The notes under the pieces: generated by a model
Databases searched by the model: none
Told to the model about the DNA's origin: nothing
What the model saw: only the letters and a program-made list of their open reading frames with translations
Shown: positions 1-4,481 of the stretch, in pieces
Numbering within the stretch: the stretch's first letter is position 1
Layout: the number at the start of each line of letters is the position of its first letter
Position numbers and translations under genes: made by a program
Source: a virus
Taxonomy: Duplodnaviria > Heunggongvirae > Uroviricota > Caudoviricetes
Length of the DNA: 4,481 nucleotides
Reading direction: 5' to 3' (one strand)
Virus record (IMG/VR): IMGVR_UViG_2700989487_000011

Positions 1-283
1 CGGAAGCCTGGCGAAGGATATCGTTACTGCGGCGCAGTTCACGATTTTCACGTTCCAGCTCTTTCAGACGCTGACGTTCAGCGGTGGTGAGTCCACCATC
101 ACCACTCCCGGTATCCCGCTCATGCTGACGAACCCACACACGCAGAGTCTCTGGTGTACAGCCAATCTTTGGGGCAATGGAACAAATTGCCGCCCATTGT
201 GAGTCATATTCGCCCTGACTTTCCAGAACCATACGAACTGCCCGTTGACGGACCTCGGGGGAAAAACGTGTATTTTTAGTCAT
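1..283 (-). CDS. IS3-family transposase OrfA, N-terminal 94 codons (partial, runs off the window)
   Basis: Hand translation from the ATG at 283-281: [94 protein letters not shown], no stop before position 1. RBS AGAGGT lies just upstream. Not in the ORF track because it is incomplete. Confidence 0.85.
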
Positions 284-299
284 CCTGTTTACCTCTTTC

Positions 300-337
300 T
301 CAGGGAGTTTAGTCTCCAGGATTCCCGGGGCGGTTCA
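300..337 (-). repeat. Terminal inverted repeat (left end) of the IS3-family element
   Basis: Element terminus TGAACCGCCCCGGG... at 337 downward, immediately upstream of the orfA RBS. The inner boundary of the repeat is approximate because the partner end is outside the window. Confidence 0.55.
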
Positions 338-348
338 ATTTGATTTGC

Positions 349-846
349 ATGACAGTTTCAGGCCTGATCTTTATTTTCCTTTTCTTCTGGTGGCGGGCAG
401 ATATTTACAGGGTCACGTTTCTTAATCAGAGTATATCCCACTATTACATTCTGTTTAGCATGGGAATAGCTTTTCTGTTATCTCTGTTTTGGGTTAAGAA
501 GGGGATAGTAAAACAAAGCGGCTGGAAGAGTCTGTCAGCATACCTTAAGGTTTATGCAGGGATGTGCATATTTGCTGGATTTTTTCTGATTATACCCCTT
601 ACAACACTAACTTATTTTTTGCCTGGAGAGACATCGTCTTATGTTGCACCGTATCGGTATACTTCCGGTAGTTCAAAAAGTTGTTCTGGAGCTGAGGTGG
701 ATGACCCCGATCTACATGAGAATATTCGCATTTGCTATCCGTATGGCAATTATGAGTACGATAATATTATCTATGTTGAAAAGAAAATTAATACATTAGG
801 TGCGGTAGTAACATATGCACAGACCGCGCGTGATGATACTGAATGA
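349..846 (+). CDS. Small integral membrane protein of unknown function (3 predicted TM helices, about 70-aa hydrophilic Cys-containing C-terminal domain); prophage accessory gene
   Basis: ORF track 340..846, but codon 340 is TTG; the first ATG is at 349 (MTVSGLIFIFLFFWW...). Hydrophobic stretches at about residues 4-15, 31-49 and 63-90, with a K-rich loop between helices 2 and 3. About 40% GC by hand count. No obvious Shine-Dalgarno; the IS end is 11 bp upstream. Confidence 0.6.
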   Translation: MTVSGLIFIFLFFWWRADIYRVTFLNQSISHYYILFSMGIAFLLSLFWVKKGIVKQSGWKSLSAYLKVYAGMCIFAGFFLIIPLTTLTYFLPGETSSYVAPYRYTSGSSKSCSGAEVDDPDLHENIRICYPYGNYEYDNIIYVEKKINTLGAVVTYAQTARDDTE

Positions 847-880
847 GATAGTATATAGCGGGCAAGTTTTAGTTAATTTA

Positions 881-915
881 TCGAGGTAATATAATTTACC
901 TCGACTCGTTTATTC
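881..915 (+). terminator. Candidate intrinsic terminator downstream of the membrane-protein ORF
   Basis: Perfect 9-bp inverted repeat TCGAGGTAA (881-889) / TTACCTCGA (896-904) with 6-nt loop TATAAT, followed by CTCGTTTATTCT. It sits 35 nt after the 846 stop. The stem is AT-rich and the U-tract imperfect. Confidence 0.3.
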
Positions 916-1056
916 TGGTATTAATATTTCGCTTTACGATCGATTTTTATCTGATGATATCATGCGGTTTTCATATACTGACTTACTGTCTTTTCTCCGT
1001 TAGCGATTTTCTCCTGCTCAGCGATGATTTTATCTTTGGCTTCTAGTTAATTTCGC

Positions 1057-1278
1057 TCACTTCGAACCTCTCTGTTTACTGATAAGTTCCAGATCCTCCT
1101 GGCAACTTGCACAAGTCCGACAACCCTGAACGGCCAGGCGTCTTCGCTCATCTATGGGATCGCCACACTCACAACAATGAGTGGCAGATATAGCCTGGTG
1201 GTTCAGGCGGCGCATTTTTATTGCTGTGTTGCGCTGTAATTCTTCAATTTCTGATGCTGAATCAATGATGTCTGCCAT
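1057..1278 (-). CDS. TraR/DksA-family C4 zinc-finger protein (RNA polymerase secondary-channel binder family; possibly a lambda Orf73-type homolog)
   Basis: 73-aa ORF with CxxC-x17-CxxC motif (CCECGDPIDERRRLAVQGCRTCASC), and a size and layout like F-plasmid TraR. The only SD-like sequence, GGAAG, directly abuts the ATG. Confidence 0.7.
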   Translation of the reverse strand: MADIIDSASEIEELQRNTAIKMRRLNHQAISATHCCECGDPIDERRRLAVQGCRTCASCQEDLELISKQRGSK

Positions 1279-1330
1279 CTTCCATTAATCCCTGAATTGT
1301 TGGTTAATACGCTTGAGGGTGAATGCGAAC

Positions 1331-1354
1331 AATAAAAAAGGAGCCTGTAGCTCC
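1331..1354 (-). terminator. Candidate Rho-independent terminator on the minus strand between the hypothetical ORF and the TraR-like gene
   Basis: Minus strand reads GGAGC-TACAG-GCTCC followed by TTTTTTATT (plus-strand A-run 1331-1339). GC-rich 5-bp stem, 5-nt loop, T6 tract, starting about 20 nt after the stop codon at 1377-1379. Confidence 0.4.
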
Positions 1355-1376
1355 CTGATGATTTTGCTTTTCATGC

Positions 1377-1658
1377 TCACCGTTCCTTAAAGACGCCGTT
1401 TAACATGCCGATCGCCAGGCTTAAATGAGTCGGTGTGAATCCCATCAGCGTTACCGTTTCGCGGTGCTTCTTCAGTACGCTACGGCAAATGTCATCGACG
1501 TTTTTATCCGGAAACTGCTGTCTGGCTTTTTTGATTTCAGAATTAGCCTGACGGGCAATACTGCGAAGGGCGTTTTCTTGCTGAGGTGTCATTGAACAAG
1601 TCCCATGTCGGCAAGCATAAGCACACAGAATATGAAGCCCGCTGCCAGAAAAATGCAT
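1377..1658 (-). CDS. Small hypothetical protein in the position of lambda orf61 but apparently not the same gene
   Basis: Open frame of 93 codons from the ATG at 1658. An alternative in-frame ATG at 1592 (MTPQQENALR..., 71 aa) has a weak GGGA upstream. No recognisable motif. Start codon uncertain. Confidence 0.5.
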   Translation of the reverse strand: MHFSGSGLHILCAYACRHGTCSMTPQQENALRSIARQANSEIKKARQQFPDKNVDDICRSVLKKHRETVTLMGFTPTHLSLAIGMLNGVFKER

Positions 1659-1668
1659 TCAGTGGTTG

Positions 1669-1860
1669 TCATACCAGGTCTCTCTCATCTGCTTCTGCTT
1701 TCGCCACCATCATTTCCAGCTTTTGCGAAAGGGATGTGGCTAACGTATGAAATTCTTCGTCTGTTTCTACTGGTATTGGCACAAACCTGACTCCAATTTG
1801 AGCAAGGCTATGTGCCATCTCAATACTCGTTCTTAACTCAACAGGAGATGCTTTGTGCAT
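1669..1860 (-). CDS. orf63: Lambda orf63-type small early protein
   Basis: 63-aa ORF with SD GGGAGG 4-5 nt upstream of the ATG at 1860. Its position and length match lambda orf63 immediately downstream of orf60a in the exo-distal direction. It overlaps orf60a by 28 nt. Confidence 0.7.
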   Translation of the reverse strand: MHKASPVELRTSIEMAHSLAQIGVRFVPIPVETDEEFHTLATSLSQKLEMMVAKAEADERDLV

Positions 1861-2015
1861 ATCGCCTCCCGTTTATTATTTATCTCCTCAGCCAGCCGCT
1901 GGGCTTTCAGCGGATTTCGGATAACAGAAAGGCCGGGAAATACCCAGCCTCGCTTCGTAACGGAGTAGACGAAAGTGATCGTGCCTACGCGGATATTATC
2001 GTGAGGATGCTTCAT
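1833..2015 (-). CDS. orf60a: Lambda orf60a-type small early protein
   Basis: ORF track gives 1833..2021 (MAMKHPH...). SD GGGGAG spacing favours the second ATG at 2015 ([11 protein letters not shown]..., 60 aa). That ATG overlaps the exo stop as tcat at 2012-2015 (ATGA coupling). Confidence 0.75.
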
Positions 2016-2692
2016 CGCCATTGCTCCCCAAATACAAAACCAATTTCAGCCAGTGCCTCGTCCATTTTTTCGATGAACTCCGGCACCATCTCGTCAAAAC
2101 CCGCCATGTACTTTTCATCCCGCTCAACCACGACATAATGCAGGCCTTCACGCTTCATACGCGGGTCATAGTTGGCAAAGTACCAGGCATCTTTTCGCGT
2201 CACCCACATGCTGTACTGCACCTGGGCCATGTAAGCCGACTTTATGGCCTCGAAACCACCGAGCCTGAACTTCATGAAATCCCGGGAGGTAAACGGGCAT
2301 TTCAGCTCAAGGCCGTTGCCGTCACTGCATAAACCATCGGGAGAGCAGGCGGTGCGCATACTTTCGTCGCGATAGATGATCGGGGATTCAGTAACATTCA
2401 CGCCGGAAGTGAATTCAAACAGGGTTCTGGCGTCGTTCTCGTACTGTTTTCCCCAGGCCAGCGCCTTAGCATTAACTTCCGGAGCCACACCGGTGCAAAC
2501 CTCAGCCAGCAGGGTGTGGAAGTAGGACATTTTCATGTCAGGCCACTTCTTTCCTGAGCGGGGCTTTGCTATCACGTTGTGAACTTCTGAAGCGGTGATG
2601 ACGCCGAGCCGTAATTTGTGCCATGCATCATCCCCCTGTTCGACAGCTCTCACGTCGATCCCGGTACGCTGCAGGATAATGTCCGGTGTCAT
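2012..2692 (-). CDS. exo: Lambda exonuclease (Red-alpha), 5'-3' dsDNA exonuclease
   Basis: 226-aa ORF ([37 protein letters not shown]...) recognised as lambda Exo. SD AAGGTGG upstream; its ATG overlaps the bet stop (ATGA). Confidence 0.95.
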
Positions 2693-3474
2693 GCTGCCAC
2701 CTTCTGCTCAGTGGCTTTCTGTTTCAGGAATCCAAGAGCTTTCACTGCTTCGGCCTGTGTCAGTTCTGACGATGCGCGAATGTCGCGGCGAAATATCTGG
2801 GAACAGAGCGGCAATAAGTCGTCATCCCATGTTTTATCCAGGGCGATTAGCAGAGTGTTAATCTCCTGCATGGTTTCATCGTTAACCGGAGTGATGTCGC
2901 GTTCCGGCTGGCGTTCTGCAGTGTATGCAGTATTTTCGACAATGCGCTCGGCTTCATCCTTGTCATAGATACCAGCAAATCCGAAGGCCAGACGGGCACA
3001 CTGAATCATGGCTTTATGCCGTAACATCCGTTTAGGATGCGACTGCCACGGCCCCGTGATTTCTCTGCCTTCGCGGGTTTTGAATGGTTCGCGGCGGCAT
3101 TCATCCATCCATTCGGTAACGCAGATCGGATGATTACGGTCCTTGCGGTAAATCCGGCATGTACAGGATTCATTGTCCTGCTCAAAGTCCATGCCATCAA
3201 ACTGCTGGTTTTCATTGATGATGCGGGACCAGCCATCAACGCCCACCACCGGAACGATGCCGTTCTGCTTATCAGGGAAGGCGTAAATTTCTTTCGTCCA
3301 CGGATTAAGGCCGTACTGGTTGGCGACGATCAACAATGCGATGAACTGCGCATCGCTGGCATCGCCTTTAAATGCCGTCTGGCGAAGAGTGGTGATCAGT
3401 TCCTGTGGGTCGACAGAATCCATGCCGACACGTTCAGCCAGCTTCCCTGCCAGCGTTGCGAGTGCTGTACTCAT
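2689..3474 (-). CDS. bet: Bet (Red-beta) single-strand annealing recombinase
   Basis: 261-aa ORF ([37 protein letters not shown]...) recognised as lambda Bet. SD GAGGT upstream of the ATG at 3474. Confidence 0.95.
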
Positions 3475-3479
3475 CCGTT

Positions 3480-3896
3480 TTATACCTCTGAATCAATATC
3501 AACCTGATGGTGAGCAATGGTTTCAACCATGTACCGGATGTGTTCTGCCATGCGCTCCTGAAACTCAACATCGTCATCAAACGCACGGGTAATGGCTTTT
3601 TTGCTGGCCCCGTGGCGTTGCAAATGACCGATGCATAGCGATTCAAACAGGTGCTGGGGCAGGCCTTTTTCCATGTCGTCTGCCAGTTCTGCCTCTTTCT
3701 CTTCACGGGCTATCTGCTGGTAGTGACGCGCCCAGCTCTGAGCCTCAAGACGATCCTGAATGTAATAAGCGTTCATGGCCGAACTCCTGAAATAGCTGTG
3801 AAAATATCGCCCGCGAAATGCCGGGCTGATTAGGAAAACAGGAAAGGGGGTTAGTGAATGCTTTTGCTTGATCTCAGTTTCAGTATTAATATCCAT
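3480..3896 (-). CDS. gam: Gam, RecBCD inhibitor (host-nuclease inhibitor)
   Basis: 138-aa ORF ([32 protein letters not shown]...[35 protein letters not shown]...) recognised as lambda Gam. Internal Met41 (MNAYYIQ) corresponds to the short GamS form. Lies 5 nt upstream of bet. Confidence 0.93.
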
Positions 3897-3994
3897 TTTT
3901 TATAAGCGTCGACGGCCTCACGAAACATCTTTTCATCGCCAATAAAAGTGGCGATAGTGAATTTAGTCTGGATAGCCATAATTGTTTGATCCAT
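3851..3994 (-). CDS. kil: Kil, host cell-division inhibitor (FtsZ antagonist)
   Basis: 47-aa [47 protein letters not shown], which is the C-terminal part of the 89-aa track ORF. Good SD CAGGAG about 9 nt upstream of the ATG at 3994. Overlaps the gam start by 46 nt. Confidence 0.8.
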
Positions 3995-4127
3995 TTTTTG
4001 GGACTCCTGGCTGATTAAGTATGTCGATAAGGCGTTTCCATCCGTCACGTAATTTACGGGTGATTCGTTCAAGTAAAGATTCGGAAGGGCAGCCAGCAAC
4101 AGGCCACCCTGCAATGGCATATTGCAT
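3963..4127 (-). CDS. cIII: CIII, FtsH (HflB) protease inhibitor that stabilises CII
   Basis: Hand translation from the ATG at 4127-4125 gives MQYAIAGWPVAGCPSE..., with stop TAA at 3965-3963 (54 codons). Strong SD AAGGAG upstream. Too short for the ORF track. Overlaps kil out of frame. Confidence 0.85.
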   Translation of the reverse strand: MQYAIAGWPVAGCPSESLLERITRKLRDGWKRLIDILNQPGVPKNGSNNYGYPD

Positions 4128-4199
4128 GGTGTGCTCCTTATTTATACATAACGAAAAACGCCTCGAGTGAAGCGTAATTGGTATGCGGTAACGCCGCGC

Positions 4200-4442
4200 T
4201 CAGGCGGCCTTGATAGTCATATCATCTGAATCAAATATTTCTGATGTATCGATATCGGTAATTCTTATTCCTTCACTACCATCCATTGGAGGCCATCCTT
4301 CCTGACCATTTCCATCATTCCAGTCGAACTCACACACAACACCATATGCATTTAGGTGATGCTGCCAACTTACTGATTTAGTGTATGATGGTGTTTTTGA
4401 GGTGCTCCAGTGGCTTCTGTTTCTATCAGCTGTCCCTCCTGT
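4200..4442 (-). CDS. ea10: Ea10-like protein, C-terminal portion only; no usable start in frame (disrupted or mosaic, possibly a pseudogene)
   Basis: Hand translation of the frame ending at stop TGA (4202-4200): ...SWQHHLNAYGVVCEFDWNDGNGQEGWPPMDGSEGIRITDIDTSEIFDSDDMTIKAA*, matching the lambda Ea10 C-terminus from memory. An in-frame TGA at 4445-4443 closes the frame. The only in-frame ATG is at 4286 and a GTG at 4337. Confidence 0.5.
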   Translation of the reverse strand, partial: TGGTADRNRSHWSTSKTPSYTKSVSWQHHLNAYGVVCEFDWNDGNGQEGWPPMDGSEGIRITDIDTSEIFDSDDMTIKAA

Positions 4443-4481
4443 TCAGCTACTGACGGGGTGGTGCGTAACGGCAAAAGCACT
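4370..4481 (-). CDS. 3' end of an unidentified ORF entering from beyond the right edge (different frame from the ea10 remnant)
   Basis: Hand translation of the alternative minus frame: VLLPLRTTPSVAEQEGQLIETEATGAPQKHHHTLNQ* with stop TAA at 4372-4370, open to the window edge. Product unknown and could be a chance open frame. Confidence 0.3.
   Translation of the reverse strand, partial: VLLPLRTTPSVAEQEGQLIETEATGAPQKHHHTLNQ

Follow-up and report, generated by a model that had tools for sequence, protein, structure and literature searches.

A phage 434-type early-left operon gene predicted to encode a TraR-type zinc-finger protein of the lambda Orf73 kind

The orf73 gene and its setting in the early-left operon

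The window, namely the whole 4,481-nt stretch of DNA analyzed here, carries an intact ORF at 1057..1278 on the minus strand (hereafter orf73), which runs from an ATG start codon to a TGA stop codon, the stop codon lying within the end coordinate. Its translation, MADIIDSASEIEELQRNTAIKMRRLNHQAISATHCCECGDPIDERRRLAVQGCRTCASCQEDLELISKQRGSK, has 73 amino acid residues, and the N-terminal half quoted in an earlier sequence-only reading of this DNA was correct when compared with the translated ORF. A Shine-Dalgarno-like AGGGA was found at 1289..1293 (minus strand), 10 nt upstream of the ATG, and a ribosome binding site is annotated at the corresponding place in the phage 434 record. Directly upstream of orf73 lies an ORF of 31 amino acids (1285..1380, minus strand); its TAA at 1285..1287 is located only 6 nt before the orf73 ATG, so that translational coupling of the two ORFs is possible. 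The 31-aa ORF starts with GTG in the window and with ATG in lambda, and its size and position match the 31-residue "orf2313" peptide from lambda ribosome profiling. A codon comparison of four lambdoid copies of orf73 (window, lambda, and two others) gave pN/pS values of 0.09 to 0.29, which argues for a real gene under purifying selection. Two other ORFs that lie within or across orf73, at 1047..1151 (minus strand) and 1181..1288 (plus strand), were set aside as spurious.

The co-oriented block upstream of orf73 spans 1285..4354 on the minus strand. Starting from the remnant of ea10 (4200..4354), which is interrupted by IS1, the block contains cIII (3963..4127), kil (3851..3994), gam (3480..3776), bet of the RecT family (2689..3474), exo of the YqaJ family (2012..2692), orf60a (DUF1317; 1833..2021), and orf63 (DUF1382; 1669..1860), the genes from cIII to orf63 being assigned from Pfam matches together with the 434 and lambda annotation. 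A full-length orf61 of 93 aa (1377..1658) and the 31-aa ORF complete the block. The order exo-orf60a-orf63-orf61-31-aa ORF-orf73 is that of lambda and 434, and in lambda orf73 likewise follows directly after orf61 and the 31-aa ORF. The sequence-only reading had placed the gene in the early-left operon of a prophage, and the operon position was borne out, because orf73 lies on the same strand as, and downstream of, cIII-kil-gam-bet-exo in the order of the lambda and 434 pL operons. The 93-aa product of orf61 corresponds to the full-length form described for Stx phages. The 61-aa Orf61 of lambda results from an extra T in the T-run at 1527..1532 (T7 in lambda, T6 in the window), which shifts the frame after ...SEIKK; a published remark that lambda Orf61 looks truncated agrees with this difference.

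Two terminator-like hairpins were found between exo and orf73. The strongest one on the operon strand (1929..1951, minus strand) has nine pairs, six of them G-C, and is located inside orf60a just past exo. The other, GGGAGCUACAGGCUCC followed by a U run (1338..1356, minus strand), forms an 8-bp stem inside the 31-aa ORF, approximately 60 nt upstream of orf73. This hairpin is shared with lambda, but its z-score was only -1.63. The hairpin at 1929..1951 is probably lambda tL3, which the description of pKD46 puts just after exo. The hairpin at 1338..1356 was also considered as tL3, but a position just after exo fits 1929..1951 better; a literature search for lambda tL3 returned no coordinates. 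Since both hairpins precede orf73, its expression probably depends on N antitermination, that is, on an N-modified polymerase.

On the other side of orf73, homology to lambda stops 12 nt past the stop codon, at about 1045. The ea22 gene is absent downstream of orf73, and a convergent membrane-protein gene on the plus strand takes its place, as in 434. The orf60a-orf63-orf61-orf73-ea22 "conserved block" of lambda, phi24B, and 933W is therefore without ea22 here, again as in 434. A noncoding spacer (847..1056) separates the convergent membrane-protein gene from orf73 and contains a hairpin at 881..904 on the plus strand.

The segment 338..4354 was 100% identical to Escherichia phage 434 (OL657226), and the orf73 counterpart in that phage, CPT_434_37 ("zinc finger domain protein"), is identical to the window gene in both protein and DNA. 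The two ends of the window are of different origin. Positions 1..337 are the end of an IS3-family element, with the N terminus of the transposase orfA encoded on the minus strand; phage and genome records annotate DNA matching this part as IS629/IS3 family transposase. The element removes approximately 58 nt from the start of CPT_434_36, a 434 gene annotated as "putative membrane protein," and the residual ORF (340..846, plus strand) had no Pfam match. At the opposite end, 4355..4481 is the left end of IS1 (GGTGATGCTGCCAACTTACTG...), inserted inside ea10; it stands between the cIII-to-orf73 block and pL, nutL, and N, wherever these are located. Phage 434 has neither of these elements. The junction between the IS3-family element and the phage DNA (325-364) had no match in representative bacterial genomes, and this left junction was not covered anywhere in 5,426 complete E. 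coli genomes. The right junction was likewise absent from the 5,426 complete E. coli genomes; two matches that spanned its full length were rejected, as each was split into two pieces 600 to 700 bp apart and was not the same junction. The presence of IS elements at both ends suggests a chromosomal, probably degraded, prophage.

Family membership and key residues of the orf73 product

To place the orf73 product, the protein was compared with family models and solved structures. It matched Pfam PF01258 (DksA/TraR C4 zinc finger) with 35.8 bits over residues 33 to 64, above the gathering score of 24.9 bits, and PHROG 54 ("DksA-like zinc-finger protein") over residues 1 to 71 with an E value of 2e-25. 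In RefSeq E. coli genomes that contain identical DNA, orf73 is named "TraR/DksA family transcriptional regulator." Against NCBIfam TIGR02419 (phage/conjugal plasmid TraR family), the score was 55.7 bits (E value of 5.6e-15), which is below the cutoff of 59.7; the match was nevertheless full-length (residues 3 to 64 of the protein versus 1 to 64 of the model). We regard this shortfall as a near miss on a strict threshold; the motif, the length, and the colinearity of the protein were all of the TraR type. The equivalog model for F-plasmid TraR, NF010268, was not reached (26.3 bits versus a cutoff of 108). Because the cutoffs of TIGR02419 and NF010268 were both missed, the orf73 protein is a phage-branch relative, homologous to F TraR but not orthologous to it. 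NCBIfam NF008243 (PRK11019, "DksA/TraR family C4-type zinc finger protein"), which we assume from its similar size to be the model of YbiI, gave 39.2 against a cutoff of 96.

A search of solved structures with the single orf73 sequence found YbiI (2KGO; E value of 2.9e-5), TraR (5W1S chain M; E value of 8.4e-5), and also TraR in 6N57 (chain M). YbiI, an E. coli chromosomal protein, was thus the best single-sequence match in the PDB, through its zinc-finger region. We also built an alignment of 12 sequences, consisting of the window copy, the lambda copy, and ten further phage homologues with 38 to 92% identity from phages of Escherichia, Enterobacter, Klebsiella, Pseudomonas, Yersinia, Vibrio, and Salmonella. 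The profile of this alignment matched TraR end to end (positions 1 to 70 versus 1 to 72) with an E value of 7.1e-15 and YbiI with an E value of 1.3e-13, the latter match beginning at residue 30 of the 108-residue chain in 2KGO. For DksA (1TJL), the E value was 5.6e-4, and only positions 19 to 70 aligned, with DksA residues 98 to 149 (of 151); the orf73 protein has no counterpart of DksA residues 1 to 97. Because the profile covers all of TraR but only the C-terminal part of DksA, the orf73 product is best described from its sequence as a TraR-type short member of the DksA/TraR family and not as DksA. The assignment to TraR/DksA-type zinc-finger proteins made from the sequence alone was therefore upheld by the PF01258 and PHROG 54 matches and by the end-to-end profile alignment with TraR, and the comparisons that it had proposed, with DksA/TraR structure profiles and by alignment with F TraR and lambda Orf73, gave the same answer.

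The orf73 protein has six cysteines, at positions 35, 36, 38, 53, 56, and 59. The CxxC-x17-CxxC signature named in the sequence-only reading, together with a TraR-like size, was confirmed: the pattern occurs once in the 73-residue protein, as C35/C38/C56/C59. These cysteines align with the TraR zinc ligands C37/C40/C58/C61, and all four are invariant among the 12 phage homologues. A CxxC-x15-20-CxxC pattern arose in only 0.35% of shuffles of the same Cys-rich sequence; the cysteine pattern is more than an effect of chance or composition. The predicted C4 zinc-binding globular region (codons 35-59, C35-x2-C38-x17-C56-x2-C59) occupies 1102..1176 on the minus strand and includes the extra cysteines C36 and C53. 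Within the alignment, C36 (1171..1173) was found only in E. coli lambdoid copies. C53 (1120..1122) is kept in 10 of the 12 phage homologues, across six host genera, and F TraR has Val at this position; located three residues before the second CxxC, this conserved cysteine may be an alternative ligand for zinc or play a part in redox chemistry.

Residues outside the zinc-binding region were also shared with TraR. A DxxDxA motif (D3 I I D6 S A8; codons 3-8, 1255..1272, minus strand) is located at the start of the predicted N-terminal helix, and its D6 and A8 are invariant in the 12 phage homologues. An Arg pair, R46/R47 (1138..1143, minus strand), aligns with TraR R48/R49; in the alignment, R46 never varies and conservation of R47 is at least 90%. 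According to PMC9239242, TraR R48/R49 contact the secondary-channel rim helices and β′ Si3. E64, which is invariant as well, aligns with TraR E66, the acidic residue of the C-terminal helix. F TraR (5W1S, 6N57) is also a 73-aa protein and is colinear with the orf73 protein over its full length; the two share the DxxDxA motif, the C4 arrangement with 17-residue spacing, the Arg pair, and the acidic residue of the C-terminal helix. They differ in that overall sequence similarity is low (the single-sequence E value of 8.4e-5), in that the orf73 protein has two extra cysteines, and in that orf73 belongs to a phage early operon whereas TraR is encoded in the tra operon.

A single-sequence AlphaFold2 model of the orf73 protein was of low confidence (pLDDT 58.5, pTM 0.30), being weakest around residues 30 to 50. 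It contained helices at residues 5-30, 43-47, and 56-70, and these predicted positions fit the layout of TraR. For lambda Orf73, a high-confidence model (pLDDT 93) and a docked model with RNA polymerase are available in the literature. The N-terminal half had been expected to form a coiled coil that enters the RNA polymerase channel. This expectation did not hold, because TraR-type proteins are the equivalent of DksA's C-terminal half and insert a single N-terminal helix carrying DxxDxA, and the profile aligned with DksA residues 98 to 149 only. DksA and the orf73 protein have in common the region of the C4 zinc finger and C-terminal helix as well as PF01258, but the orf73 protein is half the size, lacks the N-terminal region, and would have one helix where DksA has a two-helix coiled coil.

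Lambda Orf73 and the function expected of the window copy

The lambda counterpart of orf73 is located at NC_001416 30392-30613 and is unannotated in that record. Three synonymous changes and one nonsynonymous change separate the window and lambda genes, and the proteins are identical at 72 of 73 residues, the only difference being A49 in the window versus V49 in lambda. Codon 49 of the window gene (1132..1134, minus strand) is GCC (Ala), the lambda codon is GTC (Val), and the position aligns with TraR I51. The A49 form is common to the 434, ev207, and Stx1_112808 copies, and the difference is a conservative hydrophobic change. Lambda Orf73 has the same length as the window protein, with all six cysteines, the DxxDxA motif, and R46/R47. 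The window gene is the 434 allele of lambda orf73, a characterized TraR homologue. The finding is already known in detail, and this is a routine copy of a familiar phage gene.

Lambda Orf73 was tested directly by Gopalkrishnan et al. (2022, mBio; PMC9239242). In purified form, it competed with DksA for binding to E. coli RNA polymerase at the DksA site and inhibited rrnB P1 with an IC50 of approximately 50 nM, similar to TraR, in the absence of ppGpp; rpsT P2 was also inhibited without ppGpp, and D3N and D6N variants were much weaker (PMC9239242). In cells, lambda Orf73 complemented a dksA null mutation and slowed host growth, and induction of pL in a defective prophage reduced the rRNA precursor to 29% and rpsT mRNA to 45% (PMC9239242). 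Lysogens with intact orf73 gave a 3- to 4-fold higher phage yield than D3A/D6A or in-frame deletion mutants (PMC9239242). By contrast, thrABC, argI, and rpoH P3 were activated weakly if at all, for which the authors suggested C36 and C53 as a possible reason, acting through how the globular domain folds (PMC9239242). With dnaA P2, the IC50 in vitro was approximately 420 nM, and dnaA mRNA in vivo was changed weakly if at all (PMC9239242). Lambda Orf73 and TraR thus match in their RNA polymerase site and in their IC50 at rrnB P1, but TraR-activated promoters respond only barely to Orf73. DksA and lambda Orf73 both act in the secondary channel of RNA polymerase and compete for one site; TraR lacks the ppGpp-binding residues of DksA, and the window protein would, by analogy, have no requirement for ppGpp, unlike DksA.

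These published data bear on two functional claims made from the sequence alone. Binding to the RNA polymerase secondary channel and reprogramming of host transcription have been demonstrated for lambda Orf73, which differs from the window protein at one residue (PMC9239242). Mimicry of DksA/ppGpp stood for the inhibition of rRNA and ribosomal-protein promoters but not for the activation of amino-acid promoters, which in lambda Orf73 is weak if present; because inhibition is strong and activation weak if any, lambda Orf73 mimics DksA/ppGpp only in part.

Since all the residues named for TraR are present and the single difference from lambda Orf73 is conservative, we assign the same mechanism by analogy, with high confidence, to the A49 protein. 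Our preferred reading, with a probability of roughly 0.93, is that the gene is a 434-type early-left orf73 whose product would act as a TraR-type, ppGpp-independent RNA polymerase factor that lowers host ribosome synthesis and raises phage yield. The protein would consist of three parts, an N-terminal helix with D3-x-x-D6-x-A8, a small zinc globule, and a C-terminal helix, with one zinc ion on C35, C38, C56, and C59 holding the globular domain and R46/R47 on its surface. It would bind free RNA polymerase without contacting DNA; the N-terminal helix would enter the secondary channel and reach the active-site region, the globular domain would rest against β′ Si3 and the rim helices, and the C-terminal helix would touch β Si1. 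Such an arrangement is seen in the cryo-EM structures of TraR summarized in PMC9239242: the secondary channel takes up the N-terminal helix, whose DxxDxA lies at the active-site region, while the zinc domain is seated on β′ Si3 and the rim helices and β Si1 is occupied by the C-terminal helix. The bound enzyme would then change its conformation, and short-lived open complexes at rRNA and ribosomal-protein promoters would be lost with no need for ppGpp. Upon loss of repressor, and with the help of N antitermination, the operon would be transcribed, host ribosome synthesis and growth would fall, and phage yield would rise a few-fold.

Expression at this locus, alternative roles, and significance

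Whether the protein is made in this genome is a separate matter. Because IS1 sits between the block and pL/N, the expression of orf73 in this IS-bounded copy is uncertain and may be reduced or lost. It is possible, although we consider it the less probable account, that orf73 is an intact but silent passenger in a degraded prophage, its block cut off from pL, N, and nutL by IS1 and the IS3-family element, so that the protein is absent in this genome or is made only by read-through from IS promoters. The IS1 end in ea10 (4355..4481) and the IS3-family end at 1..337 are consistent with such a state, as are the two terminator-like hairpins between exo and orf73, which probably call for an N-modified polymerase, and the absence of both IS junctions from the 5,426 complete E. 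coli genomes. However, orf73 is intact, as is each of the nine ORFs that precede it in the block, and the 100% identity of 338..4354 to a viable phage means that any decay is very recent. N-modified transcription can also pass terminators, including those inside IS elements, and silence would concern expression at this locus and not the identity of the gene.

A second alternative, which we consider unlikely, accepts that Orf73 binds RNA polymerase but holds that its main role lies in the lysis-lysogeny decision or in the block of host replication initiation ("bin") and not in lytic yield. Zdrojewska et al. (2019), as cited in PMC8614690, reported less survival and lysogenization without orf73, and earlier work associated orf73, ea22, ea8.5, and orf55 with a failure of the host to initiate replication; the inhibition of dnaA P2 in vitro (IC50 of approximately 420 nM) points in the same direction. 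On the other hand, clean point mutants and an in-frame deletion cut the yield 3- to 4-fold after induction, the response of dnaA mRNA in vivo was weak at most, and the earlier deletions may have been polar. An earlier study ascribed to orf73 a pro-lysogenic role that reduces yield, so reports on its physiological purpose differ.

It is very improbable that the product is a TraR homologue by sequence but functionally impaired, with C36/C53 or A49 causing the zinc domain to misfold. Lambda Orf73, with the same two extra cysteines, did fail to activate three test promoters, its authors suggest that these cysteines could alter how the globular domain folds, and our single-sequence model (pLDDT 58.5) was weakest at residues 30 to 50; yet at rrnB P1 lambda Orf73, which has all six cysteines of the window protein, is as good an inhibitor as TraR, C53 is kept in 10 of the 12 phage homologues, and A49 falls at a conservative position (V in lambda, I in TraR) and is common to 434 and other lambdoid phages. 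More speculative still, orf73 could have been freed from repressor and N control and show weak constitutive transcription, driven for instance by an outward-reading IS promoter, in which case the host would gain a domesticated, ppGpp-independent DksA-like brake on ribosome synthesis; or C36 and C53 could make the zinc domain redox-sensitive, which would link Orf73 activity to oxidative stress. Neither idea is supported by anything in the window, and we consider both far-fetched. Finally, the view that the ORF arose by chance and its cysteine pattern by coincidence, for which one could cite the short length of 73 aa and the absence of orf73 from the annotation of the lambda RefSeq record NC_001416, is refuted by the curated PF01258 threshold that the protein passed, the profile match to solved TraR (E value of 7e-15), the pN/pS values of 0.09 to 0.29, and the ribosome profiling and protein-level experiments in lambda.

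Under the preferred reading, the proper label for orf73 would be a lambda Orf73-type TraR homologue, a ppGpp-independent secondary-channel factor that shuts rRNA and ribosomal-protein promoters in lytic growth. Vaguer names persist: the 434 record has "zinc finger domain protein," many Stx-phage records have "hypothetical protein," and the lambda RefSeq record has none. The window copy is of little importance beyond correct annotation. Closely related copies of orf73, with 95.9 to 98.6% identity, are carried by Shiga-toxin phages, and Orf73 may therefore influence the yield of toxin phages after induction, a subject of already active published work.
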